In this document: piece after piece, positions 2 to 41,500 of the stretch
Numbering within the stretch: the first letter of the stretch is position 1
Layout of the letters: the number at the start of each line of letters is the position of its first letter
Assembly: GCA_031379725.1 (NCBI GenBank)
Contig: JANNFJ010000380.1
Span: 1-60,356, forward strand
Direction of reading: 5' to 3'
DNA: 60,356 nucleotides
Source: Calothrix sp. OTE_75_metabat_31
GTDB lineage: Bacteria; Cyanobacteriota; Cyanobacteriia; Cyanobacteriales; Nostocaceae
Notes under the pieces: model-generated
What the model was told of the DNA's origin: nothing
Databases searched by the model: none
What the model saw: only the letters and a program-made list of their open reading frames with translations
Position numbers and translations under genes: made by a program

Positions 2-490
2 ATCAGTCAAACCCAGATGAACCTGAAGTATCAGGAGATAAAAGCACCAACCAGCGGTACAGTATTTGAACTCAAGGCAAAATCTCCGGGGTTTGTGGCA
101 TCATCAACCGAACCAATATTGAAGATAGTCCCCAACGACAAGCTTGTAGCAAAAGTATTCATCACCAACAAGGATATTGGTTTCGTAAAAGAAGGGATGA
201 CGGTAGACGTGCGGATTGACTCGTTCCCGTTTAGTGAATTTGGCGATATCAAAGGTAAACTAGTATCGATTGGTTCGGACGCATTACCACCCGACCAAAT
301 TTATCCCTTTTACCGATTCCCTGCCAAAATCGAATTATCCAGTCAGCAGTTGTTGGTATCGGGAAGGAATATCCCGTTGCAGTCGGGAATGGGGGTTAAT
401 ACGAATATTAAAATACGCGATCGCACAGTGATGTCCATATTTGCCGATATGTTTAGTTCGAGTGTCGAAAGCTTGAAAAATGTAAGGTAA
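2..490 (+). CDS. HlyD-family periplasmic adaptor / membrane-fusion protein, C-terminal part (5' end outside window)
   Basis: The reading frame is open from the window edge, so the listed ORF 17..490 only starts at the first internal Met. The sequence IKAPTSGTVFELK...VKEGMTVDVRIDSFPFSEFG...GMGVNTNIKIRDRTV resembles the barrel/C-terminal segment of HlyD/DevB-type adaptors. A hairpin terminator follows. Confidence 0.7.
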   Translation: MSQTQMNLKYQEIKAPTSGTVFELKAKSPGFVASSTEPILKIVPNDKLVAKVFITNKDIGFVKEGMTVDVRIDSFPFSEFGDIKGKLVSIGSDALPPDQIYPFYRFPAKIELSSQQLLVSGRNIPLQSGMGVNTNIKIRDRTVMSIFADMFSSSVESLKNVR

Positions 491-563: not shown

Positions 564-1025
564 TAAGTACTAAATAATTGTGAACGAAGAAGAGGTTGAG
601 CCGACTATATGAGCGAGTGCGGTTCTGAGGGGCACCAGTATGCTTGATTTTAAAGTTATCAAGTTATCTATAATGAATGGTGTTACGTACTGCTCCAGTA
701 GCGAATTACCAAACACGAGTGCAGGATAACTGTTAAAGAGCCGTGCATTTCCGCGCAATGCAGCGCTCAATCAGCTCAACCTCAACTTGGCTGAAAAATA
801 ATCGCTAGGTCTACCTAACGAACTATGTAATTTATAATACTATATTATCCAGAAATTTTCGTTTATTTTTTGACTGTAAGTTCTTTCATAGGGCAACTAT
901 CCTGAACATGTTGTAGTATACTACCTTAGTAAAAGCGTACTATACTATATGCTGTTGTTGATTAAATCAGTGGGACTAAGGTGTGCGATCGCATTCAGAC
1001 TATGCAAAGAAAGGAGGGAATACTA

Positions 1026-1529
1026 ATGTCAAGTAGAGTCCCTGCCAAATTAGCAAAAGTATCTGTAAGCCTTCCGTTTGGGCTTGGTTCGGCAGAATGG
1101 ACATCCGACCCAACCGAACGGAAAGCGGCGTGGTCTTTATATGTTGAACTAGCGACTAGAATATCGCTGCAACCGTTGGAAGCAGAACTCGAACAAGGGT
1201 TACTCCGCGAAGCACTATTATCGCTGCATAGTTTGTTTAAAACGACACGCGATGTTCTTAAGGAAGCAGGACCATCTGTTGGGATAGCACCCTACTCGGT
1301 TGGTGGAATTGCGCTTGCTGTCCTCAATCGTGGGTTGCGTCCGTTTCTTTCCAAGTGGCATCCTTTATTACAAGCGTGGGAGACGCAGCGCCCACCACAT
1401 GTAAATCCTGTCGCGCACGAGAATAATTGGTGCGAGGAACCCCAACTGCGTAACGAACTGGAATTGTTGCGCCAAGAATTAGAGCAATATGCCTCAGTGC
1501 TGGCTGCGCTCGCAGGGGTTGAGGAGTAA
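1026..1529 (+). CDS. Hypothetical, predicted all-helical protein (167 aa from ATG 1026; the ORF track starts at GTG 981)
   Basis: AAGGAGGG at 1011-1018 lies about 8 nt before ATG 1026. The gene is convergent with the pAgo gene, with stops 11 nt apart. No family motif recognised. Confidence 0.5.
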   Translation: MSSRVPAKLAKVSVSLPFGLGSAEWTSDPTERKAAWSLYVELATRISLQPLEAELEQGLLREALLSLHSLFKTTRDVLKEAGPSVGIAPYSVGGIALAVLNRGLRPFLSKWHPLLQAWETQRPPHVNPVAHENNWCEEPQLRNELELLRQELEQYASVLAALAGVEE

Positions 1530-1540: not shown

Positions 1541-3136
1541 TCACATGTAGTAACGGTATTCGTATCGCATTGGTAGTTTGGAGGGTAACTCGGCAAGAAT
1601 GTGACCGACTCGTTGTGAAAAAGCGGTGGTTACGGGGTCGCTGCACGCAAAGTCGGCGGTGTTCCAGTTCATTTTAGTAAGCGCTAAGATTTCTCGCAAA
1701 ATCACATCCCAGGAACTGTCGCCGTGATGTTCGAGTATTTCGAGCGGATGAGGAACTCGCGGTCCGCAATAAGTGCGTTGGAATGGACTGTAACCGGAGG
1801 TATACAGTAGTAAATTTTCGGCACTGAATTTTATGTACGTGCCGCGAATTGGCGGGTAGTCGCCCAGTCGATAAAATTGAATCTGCCGCCAGCCGAGAGT
1901 AACAAAATCAACTTGGGAAATTGATTGGCACGCATCTTTGAATCCAGCCAATTCTTCTTGCCAATAGCGCGAGGTTTTATGGACAACAATGCGTCGGGGA
2001 AGGTTATCGCGGTTTTGTTTGCGGTACAAGTCAATCACATCTTGCATCAACGCAGCAGCAGATGTTTGGTCTAAGTGCGGCGAACGACCGTGTTTGGATG
2101 CATCCCACTCGAACGGATTTCCTCGCAAAACGTATCCATCACCTGCGGAGGTGAATGCCTGTGCCATTGAAGTGCGGATGCGGGGGTCGATTTCGGACAC
2201 CTCTTTATAAAAGGAAACACCAACGTAGCAAACACCAGGGTCGATATCTGCTAATCGCCAGGGAGTGCCGCCGGCTTTGTGGTAAAGTGCAGTGGAAAAA
2301 TTCCAAGCCCGCGTGGCAATATCCTGTAGTTTCCGTTTGTTAGATGCAGTTGCGGTATCGATAAGTTGCAAAGTACCCGGCCATACAAGCTGGGTGGGAA
2401 TTCCGTACTGCATTGCTTCAGCTTTTAGCCCCCGGCGCAGGTTTTGATGCCCGTTTTCGATGTCTTCGACACCCAGCGTTGGATTCATTTCTGGGAAAAG
2501 GGGTAATTGACCAAGTTGTACTGCTTTAAGACTTCGGCGTTCTGATTTGGTTAATTTGACGCGCTTGACTTCTCCTCCTTTTTTGACGCGCACCGTGCAA
2601 TAGTCGATGACGATTTGGGGAATGCAGCAGAGAATGACTTGCGGACGAGGTTCACGTTCGGCTAAAACCTCGATTGCTTGAATGTAGAGTTTGATAACCC
2701 GTTTTAGACGTTCGCAGAAATTATCAGCATCAATAGCTTCTTGGAATTTATCTTTTTTAATAGTTTCGCGCCAAGTCTCGCCAAAAATGAGTTCGCACTG
2801 GAATGGGAATTCTAAATTAAACCCTGGAAAGTGGGGGTAAAGAAAGGGTTCGCTGCCATCATTGGTTAACAGACCTTGGCAGCCACGCAACCATTGTTCG
2901 GCATCAGCAACCATATCGGGCAGACCAACAATACCAACGATGATGCTAGAGAGTGATGGTCGAGATTGTCCGACTAAGCTGTATGGTCCGTAGAGTGCCA
3001 ATCCTACTTTCGGGTCAATGTGTTCGTGCCGCCCACCAAATGTTATGAGAGGTTCGGAGATGATTCCCGATTCAAAATTTGGACTGCGTAAGCATGGTTT
3101 GTGGTTGCGAAGTTTAGATAATCCTTTATTATTCAT
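1541..3136 (-). CDS. Short prokaryotic Argonaute (MID-PIWI only, catalytically inactive), SPARTA-type partner
   Basis: 531 aa, too short to include N/PAZ domains. MID-like pocket segment HQNLRRGLKAEAMQYGIPTQ. Also YHKAGGTPWRL and LTKMNWNT. The PIWI core has substituted catalytic positions: CYVGVSFY where G-x-D is expected and RRIVVHKTS where R-D-G is expected. Overlaps the upstream TIR gene by 8 nt. Confidence 0.85.
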   Translation of the reverse strand: MNNKGLSKLRNHKPCLRSPNFESGIISEPLITFGGRHEHIDPKVGLALYGPYSLVGQSRPSLSSIIVGIVGLPDMVADAEQWLRGCQGLLTNDGSEPFLYPHFPGFNLEFPFQCELIFGETWRETIKKDKFQEAIDADNFCERLKRVIKLYIQAIEVLAEREPRPQVILCCIPQIVIDYCTVRVKKGGEVKRVKLTKSERRSLKAVQLGQLPLFPEMNPTLGVEDIENGHQNLRRGLKAEAMQYGIPTQLVWPGTLQLIDTATASNKRKLQDIATRAWNFSTALYHKAGGTPWRLADIDPGVCYVGVSFYKEVSEIDPRIRTSMAQAFTSAGDGYVLRGNPFEWDASKHGRSPHLDQTSAAALMQDVIDLYRKQNRDNLPRRIVVHKTSRYWQEELAGFKDACQSISQVDFVTLGWRQIQFYRLGDYPPIRGTYIKFSAENLLLYTSGYSPFQRTYCGPRVPHPLEILEHHGDSSWDVILREILALTKMNWNTADFACSDPVTTAFSQRVGHILAELPSKLPMRYEYRYYM

Positions 3137-4733
3137 CTTCTAAAAAATCTTCCTCGTCTGAATCGTCAAGTGTGAAGAAATCTTCTTCACCAGTAATATC
3201 AACGCTTGCATTGATAATGGCTTCTATGTCTTCCGTTGCTAATTCATCTTCCTCTTCTGCCAACAACCAAGCCGCTTGGTCTAACTCTTCCATCAAGTTT
3301 TTTCGGTCGTGTTCGATACCAAATGTTTGCTGTACGAACGCAGGTACAACTGATATTTCAATAGATTGTTCGCCAGCCCAAACTTGGATTATTTGCCCTA
3401 CTGATTTGGCTCGCAATACCGTTGCCCAGAAGCGAACGTGGTAAAGAACTTGTAAATTGCGTTCGACTCCCGTCCATTTGATAACGATTGAACCAACTTT
3501 AGGACCAGTTTTGATTTGAACGCCATCTTCTGTAAGCACCCAAGTAGGGACAATTTGCAGGTATAACTTGTTAGCGAGAAAGATAATTTTAAGGTATGCA
3601 CCTAAGTGCCGCCAGAATAGGATTTTCTCTTGTTGGTCGGTACTAGATTTGGTTTTAGTTTGCCCTTGTTTGTCGATGCATGGTTTGGCTACTGTTCGCT
3701 TGGCTTTCTTGCGATTGGGCATCCATGTAATTACGTTGGCATTACCATCTTTATTGGGTGGGAAGTAAAATCTACGTGATTTAATTTCATCAATGACTAA
3801 GCCAATTCGATGTGCGTGACGGTCTAAACACATATTGAGGAGAGAAATAACCAGCTTTCTGTCCTCTGCATCTGAAAGTAAGTCTGATGTGAGAATCGGG
3901 TCGATAGCAGTATCGTCAATAACAGCAGCAAATGGGCTTTCTGGTGATTGTAAATCGTGAAACGTAACGATTTGCCCCTCAAAAACCCGAAATGCAGGCA
4001 TGTATGGATTTTCTACTTCTGTTTCTAACTGCGCGGTACGGATAGCTTCTTTTAGTTCGGTTTTGGACGGAAATATAGGGCTTCCATCGGTTCGGGTATC
4101 AATTAATGTTTCGGCAATTGGGGCTACATATACGTATTGCGGCAGACGTTCGATAGGTAAGAGGTTACAGTACAATTTTTCCGAAATTGTATCGGGGTCG
4201 CCTTGGATGACGGCACGTTCAGCAATTAAGCTGCTGCGTTCTATTTTTCCTCCAACAGTAATTAGTTGCCCGCGATTTGCGATCGGTCGGGGAAGAGGTT
4301 CGTCGCGCAATATTACAATAAGTTCTTTCAGCCCGCGCTCGTAATTTTTCTCGCGCAAATCAATTGCTTTGAGATGGCGTAGAAGATAGGGAATATAAGG
4401 GCAATCGGCACCAAGGATGGGAATAATGCGTGCTTTGCGATTGTCTGGGTCGTTGTGTAGTGTGGCGTGCCATTCAGCTTCCGTCCATCCGCTTTCGCTA
4501 TTGAAGTAGTCCGGGGTCATGATTAATCCGAAAAAACGGCTTTTTTCCAAGCCATCGTTGACCATGCCAGTTATGCTTTGTCCGGCACGAATTTCTGCTT
4601 CATCTAACCAAGTTAAAAGGTTGCGCCCTTGGAAGGATATAGCTTCGATATCTGCGGCGAGTAGACGTACAAAATCTTTGTTTGTAGAGCGGTGCGAAAG
4701 AAAAATATCGCGTTGATTGTCTGGAATTGTCAT
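3129..4733 (-). CDS. TIR-APAZ protein (TIR NADase effector fused to an APAZ-like domain), SPARTA-type
   Basis: From ATG 4733 the product begins MTIPDNQRDIFLSHRSTNKDFV...FFGLIMTPDYFNSESGWTEAEW, which is a TIR fold with a candidate catalytic Glu. About 350 aa of non-TIR sequence follow, then a DE-rich tail. The ORF track start at 4811 is a TTG adding 26 unconserved-looking residues. The stop overlaps the pAgo start (ATGAATAA). Confidence 0.8.
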   Translation of the reverse strand: MTIPDNQRDIFLSHRSTNKDFVRLLAADIEAISFQGRNLLTWLDEAEIRAGQSITGMVNDGLEKSRFFGLIMTPDYFNSESGWTEAEWHATLHNDPDNRKARIIPILGADCPYIPYLLRHLKAIDLREKNYERGLKELIVILRDEPLPRPIANRGQLITVGGKIERSSLIAERAVIQGDPDTISEKLYCNLLPIERLPQYVYVAPIAETLIDTRTDGSPIFPSKTELKEAIRTAQLETEVENPYMPAFRVFEGQIVTFHDLQSPESPFAAVIDDTAIDPILTSDLLSDAEDRKLVISLLNMCLDRHAHRIGLVIDEIKSRRFYFPPNKDGNANVITWMPNRKKAKRTVAKPCIDKQGQTKTKSSTDQQEKILFWRHLGAYLKIIFLANKLYLQIVPTWVLTEDGVQIKTGPKVGSIVIKWTGVERNLQVLYHVRFWATVLRAKSVGQIIQVWAGEQSIEISVVPAFVQQTFGIEHDRKNLMEELDQAAWLLAEEEDELATEDIEAIINASVDITGEEDFFTLDDSDEEDFLEDE

Positions 4734-5136
4734 TATTAAATCAAATTTTACTGACTTGTGGGAAGTTAATTGATATTCGACAAAAAAGCACGCACCCTGA
4801 AAATTCACCAAATAACTGACAAGAAATACCAGTCATTATTTTAACATTTGCAATAATGCAATTGTACTAACTTATCAAAAGGTAGCAAAAATTTTTGATT
4901 TTGTGTGTATATTACGGAGAAAAAACTTCTAAGTCTTAGGTAATAAGCTTTATATAAATATACAAAAGTTGGTTTCTTGTAATTTTGTTACTCTATTATT
5001 TTTACGGGTAAATAAAATAATGACAACGTAACAATAAGGGTTTCAGGCATTTAAATACTCGTTTATGCTTCCAGACCCTGACAACTTTTGGGTTTGGTTA
5101 CACAATTTTTCGCTCTCCTATTTCAGTGGTAAAGTT

Positions 5137-5345
5137 TTACACTAAATCCGCCAAAACGTCAGATATTTCACGCTGTAGTTTCTGCCGCTGCCGATTGTCA
5201 TCATATTTTCTAATGGTGTCAATCGAGGCGTGTCGGAATCGCGTTCTGCACCACAGGGGTAGTTCCCATTGCTGCGATCCAACGCCGTCGTTATCAAACT
5301 GTGCCTAATCCTATGCGATATCGCCCACAAAAGCTTACTGGTCAT
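5137..5345 (-). pseudogene. Remnant of a tyrosine recombinase C-terminus (N-terminally truncated and frameshifted)
   Basis: One frame reads ...WAISHRIRHSLITTALDRSNGNY (the H-x-x-R-H box). A second frame continues RFRHASIDTIRKYDDNRQRQKLQREISDVLADLV-stop (the x-H...T...Y catalytic-Tyr segment). No upstream catalytic-domain sequence is present. Confidence 0.5.
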
Positions 5346-5497
5346 GACAACAAATCATTTAAAGCACAATACCACTAATATACATTTATAAAATATATAA
5401 AATACTACTTTTGTACAAAAGTGCAATTGTATTAATTCACTATAGATTAAATGTATAGTAGTATATTTATGCTTATGTACACTTGTGCTTTAGTACA

Positions 5498-6355
5498 ATG
5501 CAACAATTACACATACCCACAATTGTGACATTGGGATTAGCAGGGGGGCAGGGAAAGTCTACCGTTGCCCTCATGCTTGGTCGCTATCTCGGACGGTTGG
5601 GTATTCCCGTGTTATTCGTAGATGCCGACCCCCAATCTAGCTTGACCAGTTTTCTTGGTGTGAATGTTCAGCCGAATACTCCCACACTGCTGGAAGTAAT
5701 TACACAAAGTGAGGATAAGACGCACATTGTAGACGCCATCGCACCAGTACCGAACGTACAATTGTCCAATTGTACAATTGATAACTCTAACTTGTTTTTG
5801 ATACCCTCGGACGATGGTTTGGAGAATGCCAACTACAAACTAGCATCAAGCGGGATTAGCTTGTTTATATTGAGAAATCGCTTGCAACCAATCGCTAGTA
5901 ACTTTGGGGTGATTATCGTCGATCCTCCACCAGAGCGATCGCACTTAGCGCAAACTTCCCTCGGTGCTGGTGATAAGTGGATTATTCCCGCAGAAGCTAA
6001 CGTTAAGGGGGTGCAATCTCTTGTTCGTACCCTCGACTTGGTAAAAGAATTTCAGTCAGCATTACCCAATGGTGAGCTGATGGGAGTGGTTCCTTTTCGT
6101 GCCAAATGGACGGGTGTTAATCCAACCATTGCAACCAAAACTAGCATCGAAGCAATGTCCGAAATCGTTGGTAAGGACTTAATGCTGCCCCACTTACTCG
6201 AATCGGATGTCTACAAAAACGCAATCAATCAGCGGGTATCACCAAGCGATTTAGGGCAACCGGGATTGGAATATTCTATTCAAGTGCTAGCACAAAAACT
6301 TAAACCAGCATTACCCGAAAAGTACGCTTTCTTGATCCCAAGCGAAATTCTGTAG
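5498..6355 (+). CDS. parA: ParA/Soj-family partition ATPase
   Basis: Deviant Walker A LGLAGGQGKSTVA, then VLFVDADPQSSLT and IIVDPPP, which are typical ParA motifs. ATG 5498 is preferred over the TTG at 5483. Confidence 0.85.
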   Translation: MQQLHIPTIVTLGLAGGQGKSTVALMLGRYLGRLGIPVLFVDADPQSSLTSFLGVNVQPNTPTLLEVITQSEDKTHIVDAIAPVPNVQLSNCTIDNSNLFLIPSDDGLENANYKLASSGISLFILRNRLQPIASNFGVIIVDPPPERSHLAQTSLGAGDKWIIPAEANVKGVQSLVRTLDLVKEFQSALPNGELMGVVPFRAKWTGVNPTIATKTSIEAMSEIVGKDLMLPHLLESDVYKNAINQRVSPSDLGQPGLEYSIQVLAQKLKPALPEKYAFLIPSEIL

Positions 6356-6422
6356 CTTACACGCAATTGATTGTTGAAGTTTGAATGTCATAAATATTAC
6401 ACTTTACTCAATGGAGGTGCCA

Positions 6423-6839
6423 ATGGGCATATTAGACGAAATTCGCAATCGCAACACACAACCAACTGTTCCAGAACGCGATGATGTGTTGCAAACAGCT
6501 ACCGTTACCGATACGACAACACCACAAATCGAACAACCAATCGAAGTATCGGAACTTAGACGGTTGGAAGAATTATTAGCACAATCCCCAGAAATTGCTG
6601 CTCGTATACCCGTAAGGTTGGAGACTCCCATCAAAGACGAACTCGACGAATTGTGTAACCGCGAAAAAATCACCATCGAAACATTACTCGAAGCATTCTA
6701 CGTAACCTGTAAGGACAAAGAATCCATGATGAAACAAGTTACTATTGAAGCTAAAAAGCGGTTGAAAAGCCGGAAGGATGCGGGTAATATACGCTCTAGC
6801 TTAACTAAGCTCAACAATTTAACTACTCGTAAAAAATAG
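6423..6839 (+). CDS. Small charged protein downstream of parA; candidate centromere-binding partner (function unproven)
   Basis: GGAGG lies 5 nt upstream of ATG 6423, which is 67 nt after the parA stop. The product is 138 aa with an acidic N-half and a basic C-terminal tail (KKRLKSRKDAGN...TTRKK). No motif recognised. Confidence 0.45.
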   Translation: MGILDEIRNRNTQPTVPERDDVLQTATVTDTTTPQIEQPIEVSELRRLEELLAQSPEIAARIPVRLETPIKDELDELCNREKITIETLLEAFYVTCKDKESMMKQVTIEAKKRLKSRKDAGNIRSSLTKLNNLTTRKK

Positions 6840-6899
6840 CAACACGATGACCGCACAAACGCGGGCATCAACCAACATTCATAACAATGCTCGTAATAC

Positions 6900-8033
6900 C
6901 TACCTACAAGCATTCCCCTCAACACCCAAGATTGCTTCCAATTGGGATAATATTGGTTCCAACTTATCGCGCAACTCAGGATTATCCCATGCCTTGCTTT
7001 TTTTAAAATTATTGTATGCATCCTCCATGCGGGTTTGCAATTGAGCTTTTTGGGGAGCGGGATTGTATTTCTTAACTTCGGCGCGTATTTCCTTTAAACT
7101 CATATCGTATTCGATAGCATTTGCAAGCAATTCAGCCCTATCGTCATCCGATTTTACTTTGGCAATTTCAAGAGCTTTCGTATACTCAATTTTTCCCGCA
7201 CGCAGTACGGATAAAACATCTTCTTGCAAATCCAACAAAGGTAATCGCGTGCGAATAAACGATTGCCAATTTATTTTACCCAACTCATTAAAAACTTCAA
7301 AGACAACAAAAGCATCTTTACTACCCAAAACATTTCTGGTAATTTTATTTTTGCTAGCATTATCCATTTTGTAGAGTAACGCTGTCACTTTATCGAGCGA
7401 ACAAGACAACCGCAACGTCAACAATTGTAAAATTGCTTCTGCTTCATCAAGTGCGTTCAAATCCTCGCGTAATAGATTTTCAGTTAAAGCATATTGGGTT
7501 GCTTCACTGTCAGAAATTGCCAAAACATTAACAAGTATGGATGTTAAACCAACATTTTTAGCAGCTTTTAATCTTCTTTCCCCAGCAACCAACTCGTAAT
7601 TACCATCTGGCAAAGGACGCACCAATACTGGTTGCAGAATACCCGAACTGCGTACCGACTCGGTTAAAGAATCCATTTTATCTTTGTCGAAATAGCGTCG
7701 CGGCTGACTTAAAGGTAAAACAATCTGGGAGATCGGTAATAAATTGGGGTTAAAAGCAGTATGTTCGGATTGCACTCCATCACTACTTGTAGTAACTGCG
7801 ACATCAATAGCATCAATTTGTTTATCCTCATTCTCCAGTGACACTGCTACATCCGCAGTGTCTTGTTGCGGACTTTCATACACCACCGACTCAGACGAAT
7901 CGACTAATTCAAAATCATTTTTATCCACAGATAGAATTGATTTTTTACTACTAGCAGTACTTGATTTTTGGCTGCCAGTCTGAGTTTTTGACGTGCTAGC
8001 AGTCGTTACGCGCGGTATAGAGGTACGAGCCAT
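6900..8033 (-). CDS. ParB/Spo0J N-terminal-domain protein with a long S/T/D-rich N-terminal extension
   Basis: GILQPVLVRPLPDGNYELVAGERRLKAAKNVGL followed by ALTENLLREDLNALDEAEA are ParB-box motifs. The first ~110 aa are low-complexity. Confidence 0.8.
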   Translation of the reverse strand: MARTSIPRVTTASTSKTQTGSQKSSTASSKKSILSVDKNDFELVDSSESVVYESPQQDTADVAVSLENEDKQIDAIDVAVTTSSDGVQSEHTAFNPNLLPISQIVLPLSQPRRYFDKDKMDSLTESVRSSGILQPVLVRPLPDGNYELVAGERRLKAAKNVGLTSILVNVLAISDSEATQYALTENLLREDLNALDEAEAILQLLTLRLSCSLDKVTALLYKMDNASKNKITRNVLGSKDAFVVFEVFNELGKINWQSFIRTRLPLLDLQEDVLSVLRAGKIEYTKALEIAKVKSDDDRAELLANAIEYDMSLKEIRAEVKKYNPAPQKAQLQTRMEDAYNNFKKSKAWDNPELRDKLEPILSQLEAILGVEGNACR

Positions 8034-27905: not shown

Positions 27906-29581
27906 ATAACGAAGCTGCCCGAAATTGCTTTTGCAGTAGGGGACGTGGCTGACGATGCAGGGTTTACAAAATGCGTGAAACCCAAATACCAAGCGAATTC
28001 TATGCCCTTGCTCCGACGAAATAGCTACCGAATCGAATTAATACGATTGGGGATGCGAATAAAAGGGATTTGGTAGGAAAATCGACGCCATTAACCTGAT
28101 AATTGTCGCTAAATTCCTACTTAATTCCTACTAAATTTAGGTAAGTAATATTGCTTAGTTTGACTCGTATTGTTGAAGAAGATGATAAATATAACTAATC
28201 GTTTTTGGTTGTGTTGGTTAAGAAAAGCATTCATGACAATATTTTCAACCACTCCAGGGGGTTGTTAATAATCTGAAAATAAACATGGTGTATATACTAC
28301 ACCATGAACTAAATATGTAGGGGATATTTATTTTCAAAACGCGGTCGTAGCGAAGGAATTAAAAGGAATTTGGTTGACTCATCGACGCTCTTAACCAATA
28401 ATTTTGTCTTATAACTAACCTTCAAATTCCTGCAAATACCTTTAAGTACCTTCAAATATACGACAAGAGAATTTCACTGCTAAATTAAAAGCAAGCTTAA
28501 GATTTAATTAAATAGTTAATTATTTATTTTTGATTTTTGCAGAAAGCTTACAGCACGAATTATCAAGATTTAAGTGGAATTTTTCGCTCTCGAATAATTA
28601 AGAACAGAATATTTTACGAATTATTTACTTGCGATTGGAGACACTTGGAGACACTTGGAGCCTAGTAATCAGCAAACCTGATTAATTTTTACTGATTTTT
28701 CGCTGATTTTTGGCTCCACTTGGCTCCATTTTCTTTTATTTAACTCGATTTTAAATTAAAAATACTGAGATTAATTGCTATTTTTTTTGAACGGTAAAAT
28801 ACTGAATGTGATGGTTGACAGTTTTGCTGATTGCCCCACCTGATGGGCACTTTTGGCGTTTTGATGACTAAATAATTACTCATTATTTTGACATGCTGGA
28901 TTTTAAAAAATATTGCCGATTGGGACTGAAATTAGGTTAACAAAATGACTATTAGTTTTAGTTATCTATATAAATATTTATTAATCGGTTGGTGATGCTT
29001 GTTAGGTCAGCGAGAGCCAGCCATAACTGAGTGAGATTTTGTTGCATATGCTAAATTTTTAGCCTCGGAAACTTTTCCCTCAATTGCAATCGCAACATTG
29101 AAAAGCGCGTGTAACAGGTGTTGTTGCTAGGTGCTACTATACTTCAACCTGGGTTAAACCTGGGTTAAACCTTGTGGTCACAAACGCTTGTTACCAATCA
29201 GGTGTTTTGTCAATTAAAAAAGTAATTTAAATTGCAGTTTTGGCTGTTTTTGCTTCAGTTAAGTGCAACTTGGATTAAAGCTGGGTGTCACTATAGTTAC
29301 AGTTAGGTTACATCAGTACAGTAAAGTTTGATAGTTGACTAATTGCATACTGATAACTACGATTTGTTTATCGATAAACCGGGGAATATATATATTTATG
29401 GGAAAGCTTAAACCCTTGGCAAGTGTGCTATTAAAAATACTCCTGATGGTGAGGTGTATGTACTAACTGGGAGCAATGCGATTTTGATTAAGGAGGGTAA
29501 AGCGGAACGATACCGGGAAGCCTACCTTCCATATTTGTCGTGCTTTATTACAAATTGTTGTTATGAGTGCTTCCCACCTTC

Positions 29582-30829
29582 ATGGCTAATCCAAAATATG
29601 TTAATCACTTGCGTGCATTCCGACTAACCATGCCAAAAACCTTCAGCCTTAAAATCGATAACTACTTTGCTGCCAATCCCCACTGCATCATCGCCACGGC
29701 CCACATTGACACATTCCCCACCGACCTACCCCTCGAACCAAATATCCGCGAACCCAACCGCAAAAGCTCGACCTACAAGCAAATTCTCGATTCCTTGTAT
29801 GCCCAACCCGAAAAGTTTTACGAACGACACAGCGGCATTGTTTTATCGGCAAACAAAGTTAAACCGGGTAAGGATAAACTCGAACTCGAAGTACTCGAAG
29901 CATGTGAAGGTGGAAGCGATGGCATCATCAACGGCGGCCACACCGTCCTCGCATTTGAAAACGCAATGGGTTTTAAGTACAACCTATCGAATGCGCGTGT
30001 CAAAGTTACCATCCACATTGGTTTGGGGGAAGAGGATGCAAAAGATATTGCCCTCGCATCGAACACGACCGCACCCGTGGACGCTCGCTCCAAAACAAAC
30101 GCAAAGGGTGATTACGACTTCATCAAGCAATATTTAACCCAATTGGAAGTAACGACCAATAGCAAGTTTCGAGTCGCGTACTATCAAAACCAAAGCGGTG
30201 CGCCCCGGAATGCCCATTGCAACGTAACCCACCTGTTCAAATTAATCAATTGTCTCGACCGCAATCGATACAACCCCGACAGTAACACCCGAAGTAAACA
30301 CCCCACAGGTTCCAATACTCCGAGTACAATCACCGAGGTAGAAAAAGCAAGGTTGAGTAAATTATTACCCCTACTCCCCCAAGCATTGTGGGTCGAGCAA
30401 CGGTTGTATTCCATCATCCAAGAACACATCTCCAACCCCAGACGTAAAAGTGGTTGCGACCTAGCATCAATCGACACCCGCAAGAATACGCTCCTTCCCG
30501 ATAGTAAATATTCGTTCGGGTTTGCCGCACCAGCCGACCTCGCATTACCCGTGATTGCATCTTATCGGGTGTTTCTCGATAAGGATTACAACTGGCTGAT
30601 ACCATTCGATGAATTTGCAGACGAATTTATCCAACACTTGTGGGATAACTATTTTCGCAAATACTTAATATCGCAAAAGACGGCGGGCAATACCGTCGGA
30701 GCAAAAATATGCCGCGACCAAGATGTGTGGGAACACATGTACATTTCGGCACAAAGTTATCTCAATAAATACTTGATGAAGATTGTCAAGGCGAAAACAG
30801 AGGAAAATTTGACACTCGTTGGTAAATAA
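29582..30829 (+). CDS. AIPR-like (abortive-infection phage-resistance family) protein; family assignment tentative
   Basis: 415 aa from ATG 29582. LEPNIREPNRKSSTYKQILDSL...FYERHSGIVLSANKV...DGIINGGHTV resembles the N-terminal conserved region of AIPR proteins as I recall it. Not verified by search. Confidence 0.45.
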   Translation: MANPKYVNHLRAFRLTMPKTFSLKIDNYFAANPHCIIATAHIDTFPTDLPLEPNIREPNRKSSTYKQILDSLYAQPEKFYERHSGIVLSANKVKPGKDKLELEVLEACEGGSDGIINGGHTVLAFENAMGFKYNLSNARVKVTIHIGLGEEDAKDIALASNTTAPVDARSKTNAKGDYDFIKQYLTQLEVTTNSKFRVAYYQNQSGAPRNAHCNVTHLFKLINCLDRNRYNPDSNTRSKHPTGSNTPSTITEVEKARLSKLLPLLPQALWVEQRLYSIIQEHISNPRRKSGCDLASIDTRKNTLLPDSKYSFGFAAPADLALPVIASYRVFLDKDYNWLIPFDEFADEFIQHLWDNYFRKYLISQKTAGNTVGAKICRDQDVWEHMYISAQSYLNKYLMKIVKAKTEENLTLVGK

Positions 30830-32348: not shown

Positions 32349-32523
32349 GCGCAATTCGGTGTCTCCAATCACCCACACATAATTTATACCGACTTAATTA
32401 ACAACAAATTTTTAGCCTCACAATCGCCAAAAACACGCGGTTTCTCTTTAAATCGCAATTAATATTTCACTTCAAACTACTTTAAAAAACCACTACAACA
32501 TTACGGGATAAAACGAGGTCAAG

Positions 32524-35500
32524 ATGGCTACTAATAATGAATTTGGGTTGCCCAACGATAATTTATTCAACACCGAATCATCAAATAACAGCGGATTTTC
32601 CGACCCTCTAGCACCGCAAAACAAAGACTTATTAGGAACCAATCAAACATCCTCACCCATTGGTTCACCCAGTACCGACATACCCGATACATATACTAGT
32701 GGTAGCGATAGCAACATTATTGTCCCTAAACCTGCGGATAATTCTCTGTTGGGAGAAAAACCAATAGACACAACAGCAAATACCGATGCATTAACGGGCA
32801 CAGTCGAAGATGCAGCATTGGTAACGGCAGATGCAAATGACCCCTTGTTTAATGGGGGTGGTTTGAATTTTGTAGATGCATTAATGTTTACATCTACTCC
32901 ATACGTCAATGATAGTAGTGACAATCAAGCTGCAATGCAGTTTCGTAGTGCAGCATTGGCAGGAGAACAAAATATAATTTCTCCTGAAAATACTTTATTT
33001 CAGAGTGACTTAACCTTAAACTCGGAGTTGTATCCTGAGCATTTTAATACCTATAAACAGGATTATCAACTAACAGGTTTTACGCCAGGGGAACTCGTTA
33101 GCATTGACCTCAGTTCAACGGAATTTAATACTTATATCGAAGTTATTAATGCTGATACTCAAAAATCTATTGACTCAGATAGTAGCTCTGGTGCGGGTAA
33201 TGACGCTAGAATTACTTTTAAGATTCAGCCTGATATTAATTATATAGTTCGAGTTACAAGTGACAAAGAAGGAGAGACGGGACAGTATACTCTTAAAGCA
33301 ATTAAAATACCAACTATTGCAGTAAATGATGAGAAAATATCAGGTGAATTAACAGCCGATGATTTTGCACATCCAGACCGCTCTAATAGTTTAATAAAAG
33401 AGTACTATATTGATGGTACACAAGTTGGTAGTACATTAGAAATTAATTTATATTCAGCAGCATTTAGAACATATTTAGAAATTTTTGATGCGAGTAACGA
33501 AAATTTAGTTACCTATGATAGGGACTATAGTTCAGATAGCTTTTCGCGTGCAATATTTACACCGCAACCGGGTAAAAATTATATAGCTAGGGTTAGCAGT
33601 GAGGGTTATAATGGCAGCCAAACTGGAGCATATACACTCGATATTAAACCTTTACAGACAATTACGGCAGACGGGGTAGACTTTGATGGTGAACTGAAAA
33701 CCAGCGATGCTAACTTTCCTTTCGTTGAAAATGGTAATATTATAAACTATGCCGACGATTATCAACTTGTATCATTGCCGTTAGGTAAAGTTTTAGAAAT
33801 TAATCTAACTTCGAGCGATTTTGATACATATTTAGAAGTCCTCGACGGTACAGAAAATTATTTATATAGTTATAGTTATGATTACAATTCTGGAGAAGGC
33901 ACTAATTCACGACTGATTTTTGCACCGCAACCAGACAGAAATTATATATTGCGAGTTAGTAATTATAATAGCGATAAAGTTGGAGCGTACAAGCTTAATG
34001 TTAAATCCCTGACAGAAATTTCTGCCCAACAATCTGAAAAAAGGGGTGAACTCAAAGTAAGTGACGCAAACCATCCTAGTAATGAAAAATATTTTGTTAA
34101 CGATTATCAACTCGAACAAGTAACATCCAATAAATTAGTCGAAATTAGGTTAGATTCAGTAGATTTTGGCACATCGGTAGAAGTATACGATGCGCGGAAT
34201 CAATACGTTGTTGCGTCTAAATACCATACAGATGGTTCACCTAATAATTCGTTACTTGTATTTAAACCGCAATCTGGTATTGAATACGTTGTACGGATTA
34301 GCAACAGGACAAGTGACTACACCAGCAACGGTACGGGAAGCTATACCCTCGATGTCAAATCGCTTCCGGAACTAGAGGTTGCTTCTAATGAAATAAGAGA
34401 GGAACTGACGAGTAGCGATACTAGCAACCCAGCACGTACAGGTAGTTTAAGAGATGATTACCAACTAACAAAATTTACATCCAAGTACCCCATCAGCCTT
34501 GTTTTATCATCCGATACATTTGATACTTACCTCCAACTCGTCAATGCTCTAACGCAAGAAATAATCGCATCAAACGATAACAGTGGCACTGGTAATAACT
34601 CGCAACTGAGCTTTATCCCTGACGGATATACTAACTACATCGTTCGAGTAACTAGCGCAAACCCCAACGCTACTGGTAATTATACGCTCAAAGCGGTTGC
34701 AACTTCGGCATCATCCCTGGAAATAGGCGATACAAAAACCGACACATTAAGCGATGGAGATATTATTAACTTTACTAATTCCAATCGGTTGGTTGATGAT
34801 TACAAGCTAGCTGCGACTGTGGCAGGACAAGCAATTCGCCTCATGCTCTCTTCGGATAAATTTGATACAGACTTACAGTTACTTGAGTCCGATACGCAAA
34901 ATATAGTTTTGCAGCATCGCAAATCTAGTAACGGTAGCGGTTCTATGCTAACCTTCATTCCGATTATAGGCAAAAACTATATTGTTAGGGTTGCGAGTGT
35001 TGATGCAGTGGGACGCGGTGACTACCAGTTAAAAGCAGAAACTGTAGATATTCCAGTAATTGAGAATTTTGCCACTCCAATTCCTGGTAGCTTTGACAAT
35101 GGCGATATCATTAATTTAAATGATGGTAAACGTCGATTCGATGAATATCGCCTTCAGCCTCTCACACCAGGTCAATCCTTACGATTAAAATTGGCTGTTG
35201 CAGACAGTTTGAGTAGTTATGTTCAAATTATCAACGCCAATACGCAAACGGTAGTTGTTACAAGTAAAACAGCTTACAGTAGTAACAACATACAGCTAGG
35301 GTTTTTACCAGAAGCTGGTATTAATTATATTGTCAGAGTTGTTAATTCAAATCTTACTGAGGGGAATTATACCCTTGAAGCTGAAGTGTTAGCTGCCAAA
35401 TATATTTCTGCTAACAAAAATGAAGTAATCGTTGGTGCCTTATCTGAAGGTGATATTAATAACCCAACTCTTACAAGAAGATTTGCTGATGACTACCAGC

Positions 35501-38500
35501 TTACCGATTTTACAGTTGGTAAAGAAGTTCAACTTGTACTTAAATCGCCAGATTTTGATTCATATTTGCAACTAGTTAATGCTGATACAAATAAGCCTAT
35601 TCTACAAGATGATGACTACGGCTTTAATAGTAGCCAACAGTCATTTATTAAGTTTATTCCACAAACAGGTATTAACTATATTGTTCGGGTAACAAGTTAT
35701 TCTAGTAATACGACAGGAAACTATTTGGTAAGCGCTCAAGCTATCAAGACGCTTCCGTTCACTGGAGAGTCGGCAAGTGGAAATTTAAGTTCAAGCGATG
35801 TACAGCATTCAGGTTTATCAGGACGCTATAGTGACGACTACAAACTTGACACAGAATTGCTAGTCGGAAAACCTGTTATTTTTACACTTGCGTCAAATGA
35901 CTTTAACCCTCAATTTCAGCTAATTAATGCCGACACGCAACAAACAATAGTATCAAATTCAGAAACCAGCGTAAACAACACAACGCAATTAAAGTTTGTT
36001 CCACAGGGAGGAATAAATTATGCTGTTCGCGTTACAAGTAGAGACATTAATGAACAAGGTAATTATACCCTGAAAGCAGAACCATATGCGCTGCCAGAAA
36101 TTGCAGCATTAAATGGAGAAAAGAACGATAATTTACAAGCCGGAGATACTAAAAATTCAGAATATTCCGGAAGCTTTGCGGATGATTATAAACTAAATAT
36201 AACTGGTATTAATCCTGGAACTGTAATTGAACTGCAACTAGAATCTTCTAGTTTTACTCCCAAGCTACAACTAATTAACGCCTCAAATAATGAAGTTATT
36301 AATACTAACTATCTTTCAGGTGTGGGTGATAATTCTCGATTGGTATTCACTCCCCAAACTGGAGTAAATTACATCGTTCGCGTTACTGACTACTCTGGAG
36401 GAGGAAAAGGCGAATATAAACTCAAAGCTAATCCCTTGAATACGATTGTTGTTAACGAGCCAATAGCGAAAACTGGTAATTTGAACTCAACTGCAAGTCC
36501 AAACTATCCTGGATATTCGTCTGAGTACTTTATTAACGAATACCAAATTCAAGGTTTTAAAGCTGGTGAGCTTATTGATATCAAACTATCTTCTAATGAT
36601 TTTAATGCTTCTCTTGAATTATTCGATGCCTCTAAACTAAATGACCCTATAATTTCTGATGATAATTCGGGTGGAAATAGTAATGCACGCCTAATTTTTA
36701 GTCCAGAGGCTAACAAAAGTTATCTAGTAAGAGTTCGGACTCCTGGTCCATATGAAAGCGGTGAATATAATTTAAGTGCCACATCGTTAGCGACGATTTC
36801 TGCAAGAAAAGGCAATAAAAATGCAGAACTAAATGCTACTGAAGATTTAAATTACCCTAATACTGATTCAAAAATGGATGAGTACCAATTAACTGATTTA
36901 ACAATTGGCGAAGATGTTTATGTTAGTGTAAAGTCTGATGATTTTGATACTTATTTAGAAATATATGAAATCGAGAATCATAATTTAAAATATCTTGCTG
37001 GTAACGATAACTCAGGAGGAGGTACAAACTCGCAAATAATTTTCACACCAGAAAGCGGTAAAAAGTATTTAGCGCGTGTTAGCAATTACTCTGATAGTAC
37101 CCGTTTCGGAAATTATACACTTCAATCTTCGCTACCAATAACTTCACCCCAAACCCGCAGCAGAATAGATGGTGCTTTAAGCGATAGTGATGTTAATAAT
37201 CCTAATCGCAGCAGTCGTAAAAGCGATAATTACCAATTAGCCAATTTTACAGTTGGTCAACCTATTAGCATCATACTGTCTTCTCTTGATTTCGATGCAT
37301 ATTTACAGCTAATCAATGGAGATACGGGAAGAATAATTGACTTTAACGATAATTACAATTCAACAAACAACTCTCGACTAACTTTTACCCCTACTGAAGG
37401 TACTAACTACGTAGTCCGAGTTACTACCTCAGAGGTAGAACAACTAGGAAATTATACGCTGCATACTAGAGAAGTGCTTTCTGCTTTAGGAGATAAAATA
37501 GACGGTAAAATAAGCGAAACTGATGCAAAACACCCTAATTATGGCTACTATATAGACGAATACGAACTAAGTGATTTAACAATTGGTCAATTTTTTGCGT
37601 TGGAATTAAAGGCAGAAAATTTTAATCCTTATTTGGAACTGATTAACAGAGATACTGATGAAATAATCACGGTGTATGGTTCCGGTAGCTCGCGGATAGT
37701 TTTCACTCCATCTAACGGTATTAATTACGCTATTAGAGTTACTGATGTATATAAAACTGGAGATTATACTCTCACGTCTACGAAATTACCTACGCTTTCT
37801 GCTATTACGGGAACGGTAAATGTTAGCGATACTCGACTTAGCGATACAGATGCAAAATATCCTGGTACAGATTATTTAATAGATGAATACCAGTTAACTG
37901 GTTTAACAACTGGTGAAACTGTTTATGCCGGTGTTACATCTCCAGATTTTAATACTTATTTAGAGATTGTTGATGCAAGTAATGGTTCATACCTTATCGA
38001 TGATTATGATTCTGGTGACGGTACAAATTCACGTTTCTATTTCACTCCAGAATTAGGCAAAAAATATTTAGTACGGGTTGGTAACTACGGTACTAATGGA
38101 ACGGGAGCATATACCCTTAGCACTCGTAAACAAAGAACAGAAATTTCGCTCTCCGACACGAGTTTCAAACAAATTGATGGTTCGATTACTTCTGAAGATG
38201 AGCTAGATGCAGCTAACTCATATTATAGTGATGAATATTTACTAACTAGCTTACCAACTAACAAAAGAATTGTACTTGACATATCAAGCGAAGAGTTTTA
38301 TACCTTGATAGAACTGCTAGATGCGAATACTGGTAAAACCATTTCAAATAGCTTTACTCGTGATTCGAGCAGAAACTCAAAACTGATTTTTACCCCACAA
38401 CAAGGTGTTAACTATGCAGTTAGAGTTAGAGGTGATAATGGGGGAACGGGAAATTATACCCTCAATGTTAATGAATTAGCTCAAGTTGTTCCCAACTCGC

Positions 38501-41500
38501 CATACGGAAGTATAATTTTAGCTGACCAACCAGTAGGTTATTGGTCGTTAGATGAAACGACGGGAGAAATTGCAACTGATTATTCCGGTTACGGTAATAA
38601 CGCTTCCTACCACAATGGTGTAACTTTAGGTACAACAGGGATTTCACTTCAAGCAGCGACATTCGATGGAGAAAATGATACTTTAGATATCCCGATAAAT
38701 TCTCCTGAAACAAACTACACCTACGAACTGTGGTTTAAAACAAGAGAAGCGACAACAGGTATTTCAATTGTTAGAGACCAAGATGCAGATTATCAACACG
38801 ATAGGGTTCTGTATTTAAAAGACGGTAATATTTACCACGGACTATGGAGTACGGAGATTATCAATTCTACTGGTAAGAATTATGCTGATGATGAGTGGCA
38901 CTATGTAACTGTAGTTGTCGAATCAAGTGTTGGGCAAAAAGTATACGTTGATGGAGAATTAGTCGCTTCTGGAAACAAAGGAGAATCTAACTTTACCAAC
39001 GATACTCGTATAGTTGCTGGGGAAACTCTTGCTAGTGAATATTATTGGGGTATACGCTCATATTTCAAAGGTGCCCTCGACGAAATTGCGCTGTATAATT
39101 ATGTTTTACCAGAGTCACGTATCGATGCACGCTACGAAGCTTTCTTGTCGCAACAAACTGATAAGTTACCAGATTTAGCAATTACTCCGGTAACATATCC
39201 CTCTTCCCCCGTAACTTGGGGTCAAACAATTCCAGTTTCTTGGATAGTTCAAAATATAGGGAATGTACCGACAACAGCAACTTGGACTGATAAAGTATAT
39301 TTCTCTACTGACAAAAACCTCAGCATTGATGACCAAATAGCTGGTACTTTCTTACCAAATTTAAGCAATCCTCTAGCTGCCAAAGTCGGACAATACACCT
39401 TGGGTGGAAATATTGTTATTCCTAACACCCTTGACCCGAATAAAAATTGGTATTTACTGTTTGTAACGGATGCTGACTATAAACAGTTAGAAACCAACAG
39501 TAATAATAACGTGCAGTCAGTAGCACTAAATGTTAATATTCCCAATTTGAGATACTTCAACAACTTTGAGTCTCCTGTTGGTGATGAATGGACTAATCAA
39601 ACTGTTGATAAAACTTACAAGAACGTCTTCAGCAGCTTCTTAGGACGTTTTAGTGGCGATGGTACGACCTTAACATTAAACACTACACCTGGAAATACTT
39701 ATCGTTTAGAATTTGATTTCTACGCAATCGATTCTTGGGATGGTGGCAACATAACACCCGTTGGACCAGATTATCTTGATATTTCTGTAGACGATACAAG
39801 AATTTTCCGAGAAAGTTTTAGCAACGTACTAGACTATCCACAATCTTATAACCGTCAATCAGATGCGGGAGGTATAAGTAATGATTTAGGCTTTAATACT
39901 TCTTTTGGAGATTCTATATATCGCAGAATTCCTATCAACTTCACCGCTACAGGCAATACTACACAAATTCGCTTTGCAGATTATGGTTTGCAAGGTATAG
40001 ATGATGAATCTTGGGGTATTGATAACGTCCGCGTTTTCTTTACAGGAGTCAATGCGAAATTACCTAACTTAAAAGTTACTGATTTAGAGGTTGATAGTAC
40101 TGCTAAATTCGGTCAAACGGTTGATATTAGCTGGTATACTAGCAATATTGGTACAGACTCGGTGGATGGAATTTGGAGTGAACGTGTTTGGTTATCCAAA
40201 GATAGTGACTCTATATTTGAACCACAAAAAGGCGATTATGAGTTAAGACTAATAACTCCAACAACATCTGAACAAATAGCTGCGAACTCAAAATCAACGC
40301 AGCGTAAACTTCAACTCGAATTACCCTTAGACAATAAATTCCAACCAGGCAATTACTATATTATTGTCGAGACAGACGCTGGTAAAACTGTTAGAGAGTT
40401 CAAGGAAGATGATAATGTCTTACCTAGCTCCTCAATTACCATCGCATTCCCACCATTACCAGATTTAACTGTTAGTAAAGTCAATATATCGCAAAATGGT
40501 ATTCCAGGGGAAAGTATTGATGTATCATGGCAACTAAGCAACATTGGTGATGTTACCTTGAACGGAACTTGGAACGAGGACATTTACCTTATACCTGTAC
40601 AAAACTTCTCCGCAGATGGTAGCTTTAGTTTTGACAGCATACAGCCCATCAAAACTGTCAACCGTACAGCTACTATCGGCGCTAAACAGCAACTAGACTC
40701 CTTCCGTGAGACAATTGAAATTCCCGGTGATATCATAGAGGGCGAGTATCGCGTTGTTGTGATAACTGATACAGGATTCCCCAACGATAAAATCGTCGAA
40801 TACGACAACGCTACCAATAATATGAGTATCTCCACCCAAACCGTGCGCGTCGGTCGGGTAGACTTAGTGCCAGAAATTACCACGCTCCCCACAAACGGTA
40901 CTTCTGGTGAAACTATCAAACTCAACTGGAAAGTGACCCTCACAGGTGCGGTGGGAGTATCGAGGGAATTAGTAGATCGGATTTACCTGCTTGATACCGA
41001 CACACCATCATCCTACGATTTAAGAGCAGACAATGCTGTAGCCGAAGTCCGGAAAACCCGCACCCTCAGCGCTAATGGTAGCTACACCGAAGAGATTGAT
41101 ATCCCCCTACCCATCGAACTTAGCGGTAGGAAGTATGTATTTGTTGTCACCGATGCCGATAACCAACTCAAAGAAGCCAGCAGTACAGAAGATGCAGAGA
41201 ATAACAATACCATTGGACGTAGCGTCCAAATCAACCTTGGCGAATACGCGGATTTAGCAGTATCCAATATCACCGCTACCCCCCAATTAACCCTCCGCGA
41301 CCAACTCAGCGGCCCTGCAACCCTCCAGGTGAATTGGACAGTTACCAACATTGGTACAGGTGCAGGCAAGGAAACCCAATGGTACGACCGGGTAATTGCT
41401 AGTAGTGACAATATTGCAGGTAATGAAGACGACATCGTACTCGGTACATTTTTACGCTCAAGCAATCTAGCAAAAGATTCATCATATAACAAATCCGAAA

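Follow-up and report, generated by a model that had tools for sequence, protein, structure and literature searches.

A short Argonaute lacking its catalytic tetrad and the adjoining TIR-APAZ protein on a cyanobacterial plasmid-like contig probably form a two-gene immune system outside the SPARTA clade

Does a short prokaryotic Argonaute (pAgo) that is encoded together with a TIR-APAZ protein necessarily belong to SPARTA, the characterised system with this architecture? The question is raised by a locus of the cyanobacterium Calothrix sp. OTE_75_metabat_31, which resides on contig JANNFJ010000380.1 (assembly GCA_031379725.1), whose positions 1 to 60,356 on the forward strand constitute the stretch of DNA analysed here and are termed the window. 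The original prediction, made from the letters of the DNA, had assigned two minus-strand genes of this window to a SPARTA-type defence module. Our analysis suggests that the pair is likely an intact abortive-infection system, which combines a catalytically dead short pAgo as sensor with a TIR-APAZ protein as effector, and that it is part of a subgroup with TIR effectors located on the S2B side in the short-pAgo tree. SPARTA has been defined as clade S2A (Koopal 2022), and the pair falls outside of this clade. The locus is thus SPARTA-like in its architecture and SPARHA/SPARDA-like in the lineage of its pAgo and APAZ components, with a TIR domain that is closer to free-standing bacterial TIRs.

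Both genes are located on the minus strand in two open reading frames (ORFs), one covering 3129..4811 and encoding 560 aa from a TTG codon and the other covering 1541..3136 and encoding 531 aa. In an alignment of 37 family members, a methionine at ATG 4733, which is followed by a conserved RDIFLSH stretch, is invariant, and we thus assign the start of TIR-APAZ to this position, which places the upper limit initially proposed for the gene 78 nt too far. The predicted 8-nt overlap between both genes is exact (...GAA GAT GAA TAA versus ATG AAT AA..., with the pAgo ATG at 3136-3134 and the TIR-APAZ TAA at 3131-3129), and related loci likewise show an overlap or abutment of the two genes. The features of the module are the following, in coordinates of the window:

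1541..3136, minus strand: short pAgo gene, 531 aa, MID-PIWI only
3129..4733, minus strand: TIR-APAZ gene of 534 aa with its stop codon at 3129-3131; the ORF as called automatically reaches TTG 4811
3129..3136, minus strand: 8-nt overlap ATGAATAA of TIR-APAZ stop and pAgo start, pointing to translational coupling
4317..4706, minus strand: TIR domain (Pfam TIR_2), residues 10-139 in the product of 534 aa
4473..4475, minus strand: codon of E87, the Glu of an invariant G-W-x-x-A-E-W motif and predicted catalytic residue of the NADase
3273..4172, minus strand: APAZ domain, aa ~188-487; the linker in front of it (aa ~148-187) is of low confidence
3132..3272, minus strand: acidic C-terminal tail of 47 aa (residues 488-534), 45% Asp/Glu, no Lys/Arg
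2276..2437, minus strand: MID 5'-phosphate pocket of the 'RK' type (R234, K238, T248/Q249, K287)
1613..2215, minus strand: PIWI stretch with the DEDX-equivalent positions (S308 2213-2215, P353 2078-2080, T388 1973-1975, Q508 1613-1615)
4734..5001, minus strand: upstream non-coding stretch, conserved with the module in a Tolypothrix relative, where a block of 91.7% identity ends at 5001; it is the probable promoter region of the module

The scores of the domain assignments exclude that the module is a chance feature. As predicted, the 531-aa protein is an Argonaute restricted to MID and PIWI domains, in keeping with short pAgos in general, which have a size of about 450-530 aa and lack N and PAZ domains. 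Its residues 23-531 match positions 3-455 of the 455-residue PADLOC model pAgo_I with an E-value of 7e-147, and it also aligns over its full length to short pAgo chains in the Protein Data Bank (PDB). The Pfam scan that had been proposed for both proteins gave a divided result, with a clear match to TIR_2 in the partner and a Piwi match in the pAgo that stays below threshold. The catalytic DEDX tetrad is absent. In a direct alignment with TtAgo, whose tetrad residues were checked in the sequence fetched from pTT27, D478, E512, D546 and D660 correspond to S308, P353, T388 and Q508, none of which is acidic. This alignment substitutes for a published residue map of DEDX positions in short pAgos, which we did not find in the literature. 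Throughout the clade of the window pAgo, the equivalent positions are occupied by S/A, P, T/S and Q/R/K/H and never by an acidic residue, and the segments VGVSFY and IVVHKTS, which had been singled out as substituted, do cover tetrad positions. Equally well founded was the recognition of a MID pocket in the string HQNLRRGLK...PTQ...YHKAGG, which contains the 5'-phosphate clamp R234/K238. In the alignment, their counterparts are the R/K of NbaAgo and, in AcaAgo, R180/K184, for which the cryo-EM structure of SPARHA (PDB 9OM4) shows binding to the 5'-phosphate of the guide. In the family alignment K238 is invariant and R234 nearly so, and Q249 and K287 are also kept. The interface-loop residues of AcaSPARHA can in part be aligned to the window pAgo.

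The partner protein opens with the anticipated TIR domain (Pfam TIR_2 with E 9.6e-21, covering residues 36-165 in the ORF of 560 aa), which is nearest to bacterial TIRs of the AbTIR/PdTIR/BtpA/Cat1 type and not to the TIRs of SPARTA. The candidate catalytic residue within SGWTEAEW is E87 in the numbering that starts at ATG 4733. It is invariant in the family alignment and aligns with the Glu of the AbTIR motif W-T-N-Y-E, and a WxxxE motif is also found in sequences of other TIR clades. In bacterial TIR NADases, the Glu at this position is the catalytic residue. The catalytic mutant of MapSPARTA is TIR-E77A (Koopal 2022). The APAZ-like sequence that had been noticed downstream of the TIR domain is matched in its C-terminal ~300 aa by the APAZ models of PADLOC ('PNTD1-PNTD2'), with REase-APAZ (1.6e-43) and SIR2-APAZ (3.5e-32) scoring far better than two TIR-APAZ models (5e-11 and 2e-9), an initial hint that the pair departs from typical SPARTA. 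An AlphaFold2 (AF2) model of the protein has a mean predicted local distance difference test (pLDDT) score of 71.8, with values of ~90 in the APAZ core. The length and charge of the acidic C-terminal tail are both conserved in the family (median 47 aa, 41% acidic, net charge -20), and by analogy to SPARDA this tail is predicted to act as nucleic-acid mimic and autoinhibitor.

The placement of the pair outside SPARTA rests on profiles and on a tree that are in mutual agreement. When searched against the PDB, the single pAgo sequence scores highest against AcaSPARHA (9om4_B, 281 bits), followed by SPARDA (207-223 bits), SPARTA (180 bits) and SPARSA (105 bits), and the same order is obtained with a profile of 35 pAgo family members (SPARHA 359 bits, SPARDA 296-315, SPARTA 234-249 and SPARSA 137). 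The TIR-APAZ family profile matches HNH-APAZ (7e-26) and four DREN-APAZ chains (1e-7 to 1e-9) and, in its TIR half, AbTIR, PdTIR and Cat1, whereas none of the SPARTA TIR-APAZ chains was found in this PDB search at E<=1. The lack of a match carries weight, since a bona fide S2A partner encoded on a Rhizobium plasmid, used as positive control, matches all SPARTA TIR-APAZ chains along the whole of its own length with E-values of 1e-55 to 1e-60. When this S2A partner is aligned by hhalign to the family of the window, the relationship is confined to the APAZ part and reaches a probability of only 61% (E 8e-5, 23% identity). A Foldseek search with the APAZ domain identified SPARHA 9om4_A as best superposition (TMt 0.75, root-mean-square deviation (rmsd) 5.1 Å, 22% identity) and also detected SPARDA.

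In the tree of the MID-PIWI region, the window pAgo is contained in a clade of 22 pAgos with 100% support, 20 of which have a partner typed as TIR, with the remaining two partners being untypable. Two S2A anchors, MapAgo and the pAgo of the Rhizobium plasmid (46% identical to MapAgo), are split at 100/100 bootstrap from the window clade, SPARHA, SPARDA and all other sequences, and the Kimura distance of the window pAgo is 1.54 to MapAgo and 1.11 to SPARHA. The side of the tree that harbours the window clade also contains at least two more TIR-linked clades, SPARHA, SPARDA, a Schlafen group and an untyped group, and the representatives of two other TIR clades match HNH-APAZ and not the SPARTA partners. 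The S2B side thus comprises at least three well-supported TIR-linked pAgo clades, besides variants that are fused to an XRE-type helix-turn-helix (HTH) domain. Tree and profile scores are in this respect in line with the S2B-type position that had been expected for the pAgo, and the SPARTA label of the original prediction holds for the architecture, a dead short pAgo coupled to TIR-APAZ, but not for the lineage. Clade S2B was described to include 'a subgroup of TIR effectors' and an exchange of effectors was suggested (Prostova et al., bioRxiv 10.1101/2023.06.08.544223), and our locus almost certainly falls into this subgroup, as it combines TIR_2 with an APAZ domain of the S2B type. The subgroup is thus already known from phylogenies, where it is listed without biochemistry or structure, and reviews up to September 2026 name only SPARTA, SPARSA, SPARDA and SPARHA as characterised short pAgo systems.

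A comparison with these systems underlines the composite character of the pair. With SPARTA (MapSPARTA, CrtSPARTA and BabSPARTA, all S2A) it shares the order of TIR-APAZ followed by pAgo, the two-domain effector, a MID-PIWI pAgo devoid of the DEDX tetrad, the catalytic Glu of the TIR domain and an acidic C-terminal tail, which is also present in the S2A partner from Rhizobium, and by analogy the hydrolysis of NAD(P)+ upon guide-directed recognition of DNA would be the expected common output. However, all three modules (pAgo, APAZ and TIR) are from another lineage, the first position of the MID pocket is an Arg instead of the His found in MapAgo, and the partner is ~80 aa longer than in SPARTA, with an extended linker between TIR and APAZ. 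SPARTA assembles as a tetramer. The closest solved structures of pAgo (359 bits) and APAZ (7e-26) are those of AcaSPARHA (PDB 9OM4; S2B), with which the pair has the R/K clamp of the 5'-phosphate and the equivalent of Y427 of the T1' pocket in common, while its effector is a TIR instead of an HNH nuclease. Second in proximity for pAgo and APAZ is SPARDA (Nba, Xau and Eae; S2B), where the 'QD' at positions 271-272 of the window pAgo is also found in NbaAgo. The acidic C-terminal tail of SPARDA fills the duplex groove and autoinhibits the apo complex, and the window protein has an equivalent tail. In contrast to the TIR domain described here, the effector of SPARDA is the PD-(D/E)XK nuclease DREN, which kills by collateral cleavage of DNA and RNA from filaments.

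The locus belongs to a large family. Homologue searches retrieved TIR-APAZ proteins by the hundreds (55-60% identity), together with pAgos that share 60-70% identity, from Cyanobacteria, Planctomycetes, Acidobacteria, Nitrospirae, Chloroflexi and other phyla. Nearly all of 80 related loci drawn from species-representative genomes contain an upstream partner gene. Typing of the effectors in clustered representatives assigned 38 to TIR_2 (including the window), 15 to Schlafen/AlbA_2, seven to DUF4365/DREN and left six untyped, with the DUF4365, Schlafen/AlbA_2 and untyped effectors accompanying pAgo relatives of 33-48% identity. In all 23 loci of the clade, pAgo and partner are the only recurring genes, which defines a strictly two-gene family. 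The distances of pAgo, APAZ and TIR correlate closely with one another (Mantel r 0.91-0.92, p 0.0005), indicating that the TIR domain is an old resident of the pAgo/APAZ scaffold and not the product of a recent swap. When compared to the copy in Tolypothrix sp. VBCCA 56010 (contig L001), both genes are equal in length and devoid of indels, and omega values are 0.13 and 0.08 for the two genes at a dS of ~0.24. The pair is thus an intact, co-evolving unit under purifying selection.

Variants of this arrangement were encountered in the same survey. Among the TIR-APAZ homologues that are closest to the window protein, about one-fifth have a length of ~590-600 aa and carry an XRE-type HTH (PF01381/PF12844/PF13560) N-terminal to the TIR domain (proteins P0025, P0057, P0062, P0068, P0070 and others), an architecture for which we found no description in the short-pAgo literature searched. 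Fifteen loci, mostly archaeal (L044-L075), encode pAgos at 34-45% identity with Schlafen/AlbA_2-APAZ partners (Pfam SLFN_AlbA_2, E 6e-9), and six loci from Bathyarchaeota (L024-L034) encode an APAZ partner with an N-terminal domain of ~170 aa that lacks a Pfam match. The Schlafen/AlbA_2 and untyped groups may represent some of the 'additional uncharacterized effectors' of S2B.

The genomic context of the module is plasmid-like. In line with the par/rep/mob genes that had been noted, the window encodes ParA, ParB, a tyrosine recombinase, a replicase of the DUF3854/CyRepA1 type and a relaxase of the Mob_Pre-Toprim type, and it shows patchy matches of 75-85% identity to plasmids of Calothrix, Nostoc and Aulosira. 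A segment of 4.1 kb at 870-5001, which covers the neighbouring gene orf182, pAgo, TIR-APAZ and the upstream region, is 91.7% identical to positions 3129..7270 of the Tolypothrix contig L001, compared to 68-75% in the parA region and other patches of the backbone. The difference is consistent with a recent exchange of cargo between related plasmids or with a much stronger constraint on the module. The corresponding interval of Calothrix plasmid4, from the type I secretion system (T1SS) genes to parA, is occupied by XRE, antirepressor and KilA genes instead, and on the basis of this content and of the Tolypothrix block we regard the module as exchangeable cargo in a variable slot. A discrete mobile cassette was considered and rejected, as the boundaries at 870 and 5001 contain no convincing flanking repeats. 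The clade itself is absent from all 72,556 plasmids of PLSDB (best identity 34%) and from the viral contigs of IMG/VR, where only distant pAgo relatives of no more than 38% identity were found. Its members are mostly located on long contigs of up to megabase size, including a 4.3-Mb contig of Phycisphaerae, from which it follows that the family is not specific to plasmids.

The location of such a system on a plasmid had been presented as a puzzle of self-activation. A plasmid with ParAB partitioning is expected to be of low copy number, single-copy replicons, including bacterial artificial chromosomes, and low-copy replicons do not activate SPARTA (Koopal 2022), and 98 PLSDB plasmids carry short pAgo systems, 50 of which are conjugative and which include canonical SPARTA on 433-kb Rhizobium plasmids. 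In light of the inert low-copy replicons and of the plasmids carrying such systems, the paradox appears weak.

Taken together, these features would be compatible with the following mechanism, whose heterodimer, RNA guide and DNA target, autoinhibition by the tail, type of oligomer and depletion of NAD are extrapolated from the homology to SPARHA, SPARDA and SPARTA. Coupled translation would yield a 1:1 heterodimer of TIR-APAZ and pAgo, in which APAZ would provide the N/L1/L2 lobe that is missing from the pAgo. In the resting state, the acidic C-terminal tail of ~47 aa would be placed in the basic groove for the duplex. The MID pocket (R234/K238/Q249/K287) would load a small guide RNA that is drawn from transcripts and carries a 5'-phosphate, and the pairing of this guide with complementary DNA of an abundant, transcribed invader would expel the tail and shift sensor loops of the PIWI domain. 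This shift would promote an oligomerisation that brings TIR domains together, and the active site around E87 would then hydrolyse NAD(P)+, leading to dormancy or death of the invaded cell. As cargo on a ParAB-partitioned plasmid, the module would guard host and plasmid against other invaders, with the carrier itself presumably staying below the threshold of activation. Whether the oligomers would be target-induced filaments instead of SPARTA-like tetramers is a separate matter. Activation in the form of a pAgo-nucleated TIR NADase filament is conceivable because the pAgo/APAZ scaffold comes from the filament-forming SPARHA/SPARDA lineage and because TIR domains require ordered TIR-TIR contacts, although we treat this idea as tentative and rather doubt that it applies.

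Several points weigh against the proposed interpretation. In the AF2 model of TIR-APAZ, the TIR part is of moderate confidence, and the model of the pAgo (mean pLDDT 57.5) was too poor for a fold search and was not used. Compared to AcaAgo, the contacts to the guide bases A1 and U2 are altered (D178 to N232 and D212 to Q271) and, due to these two differences, the guide preference of AcaAgo is not transferable to the window pAgo. The tree is a bootstrapped neighbour-joining tree of 293 columns with partial references from the PDB and no S1 outgroup, and the deep order among the clades on the S2B side has bootstrap values below 50. The label S2B would thus reflect the exclusion from S2A and the greater similarity to the SPARHA and SPARDA references. 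Scans for promoters and terminators returned counts within the expectation from shuffled sequences, with none being statistically supported, and no experimental study of the S2B TIR subgroup was found in the literature searched.

Against this background, alternative explanations have to be considered. If the pair were a canonical SPARTA of clade S2A, to be filed with MapSPARTA, CrtSPARTA and BabSPARTA, this would account for the common operon order, the two-domain partner, the weak PADLOC matches to TIR-APAZ models and a Foldseek match of the full-length AF2 model to SPARTA TIR-APAZ chains, which covers both domains with E ~1e-16. However, with an rmsd of ~19 Å and 13-16% identity, the latter reflects the shared TIR and APAZ architecture, and the failure of the profile to find any SPARTA partner, the 100% bootstrap of the S2A split and a MID pocket of the RK type in place of the His-Lys of MapAgo make such an assignment extremely improbable. 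The same is true for the idea that the pair is a decaying and inactive relic, for which one could invoke the frameshift in the adjoining orf182 homologue of the Tolypothrix relative and the lack of a supported promoter, since both genes are of full length without indels relative to L001, evolve at the low omega values described above and have conserved all catalytic and binding residues.

Two further alternatives concern function and deserve more credit, though neither of them much. AbTIR-type enzymes produce isomers of cyclic ADP-ribose (cADPR), and the proximity of the TIR domain to AbTIR, PdTIR, BtpA and Cat1-type proteins instead of SPARTA TIRs could indicate that it generates a signal such as a cADPR isomer, as in Thoeris ThsB or in AbTIR, or modifies another substrate, and is not a bulk depleter of NAD+. 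We consider this unlikely, as none of the 23 loci contains a recurrent third gene that could serve as receptor or effector, depletion of NAD+ is also brought about by many of the TIRs producing cADPR isomers, and APAZ proteins were described as the only specific partners of pAgos (Koopal 2022). Somewhat less unlikely, but still improbable, is a primary role that is centred on the plasmid, where the module would have been selected to exclude rival plasmids or to stabilise its carrier rather than to defend the host against phages. This notion would fit its location as cargo in the variable slot that separates parA from the T1SS genes in a plasmid backbone conserved in Nostocales, its high identity to the Tolypothrix copy in a diverged backbone, the interference of characterised SPARTA, SPARDA and SPARHA with multicopy plasmids and the fact that half of the plasmids bearing short pAgos are conjugative. 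It contrasts with the predominance of long contigs among clade members and the absence of the clade from PLSDB, and it is in any case compatible with the defence system proposed here, from which it does not differ in mechanism.

The surroundings of the pair contain further features of interest. The two-gene module had been described as the clearest dedicated immune system of the window and it stands as an immune module, but it is not the sole immune gene, since an AIPR abortive-infection gene at 29567..30829 on the plus strand (Pfam AIPR, E 1e-37) is a second candidate on the same replicon. Close to the module are:

981..1529, plus strand: orf182, with a database gene call of 167 aa from 1026, 12 bp from the pAgo stop
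4851..4870, 5416..5435 and 5490..5514: 20-nt motif around TGCAATTGTA, with one occurrence upstream of TIR-APAZ and two around the parA promoter

A role of orf182 as third component was rejected, as the gene is absent from 20 of the 23 clade loci and frameshifted in L001, and we regard it as a neighbour only. It has no match in Pfam, PADLOC or NCBIfam and is one of more than 1,000 mainly cyanobacterial hypothetical proteins of ~165 aa that form a family on chromosomes and plasmids, with homologues also found near the same pAgo module in Acidobacterium (L008) and in a metagenome-assembled genome of Ktedonobacteraceae (L031), which represent two distant phyla. The motif around TGCAATTGTA was equally dismissed as a common operator of TIR-APAZ and parA, since the window contains five matches compared to 7.1 expected by chance and, in L001, TIR-APAZ is not preceded by a conserved copy.

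At the other end of the window, an uninterrupted frame of at least 9,281 codons (32512..60356, plus strand) runs past its end, which is the reason why it is missing from the ORF list. Its Pfam matches (CARDB, seven He_PIG, five Big_9, Cadherin_5, Dockerin_1 and DUF7619) point to a repetitive surface or adhesin-like protein, part of which is matched at 77% by Calothrix plasmids. Positions 17..490 appear by eye to encode the C-terminus of an HlyD-type protein, and a related Calothrix plasmid carries a toxin-secretion ABC transporter nearby, which suggests that a T1SS and a giant adhesin are part of the plasmid cargo. Two of the loci on other plasmids show distinct arrangements. In the conjugative 433-kb plasmid pRspN561b of Rhizobium esperanzae, a canonical S2A SPARTA pair adjoins a second, free-standing TIR gene, a 7-cyano-7-deazaguanine synthase and an HhH-GPD glycosylase in a region (1554..7551 of locus L081) resembling a defence island. 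Plasmid pn3 of Nostoc sp. UHCC 0926 encodes, at 2986..4419 of locus L082, a short pAgo of 477 aa that is 33% identical to that of the window and nearest to SPARDA pAgos. It has an atypical operon layout without an upstream partner on the same strand and with a divergent hypothetical neighbour of 409 aa. Its flanks encode DISARM drmC, a NACHT protein and a cytosine methyltransferase.

Collectively, our analysis describes an ordinary and well-conserved member of a large family within a class of systems that is well understood, and the presence of such a locus will not surprise the specialist. It samples, however, a branch of TIR-armed short pAgos that has so far only been listed in phylogenies, while everything known on the structure and biochemistry of pAgo-controlled TIR NADases was obtained with clade S2A. 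For annotation, this implies that the naming of every pair of TIR-APAZ and short pAgo as SPARTA lumps two lineages. The plasmid context provides a cyanobacterial case of defence cargo that is swapped between related plasmids and poses no new paradox. The second, apparently independent union of TIR with a pAgo/APAZ scaffold constitutes a natural experiment, which may help to apportion features such as the autoinhibitory tail, the sensor loops and the assembly into tetramers or filaments between scaffold and effector. Among these, the most interesting question raised by the locus is whether activation proceeds via tetramers as in SPARTA or via filaments as in SPARHA and SPARDA, and it offers a good entry point into the control of the assembly mode by scaffold or effector. 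If the filament idea were true, it would join the assembly logic of SPARDA and SPARHA to the one seen in TIR-SAVED, TIR-STING and Cat1, it would imply at least two independent recruitments of TIR effectors by short pAgos, and it would assign the choice of the oligomerisation mode to the pAgo/APAZ scaffold rather than to the effector.

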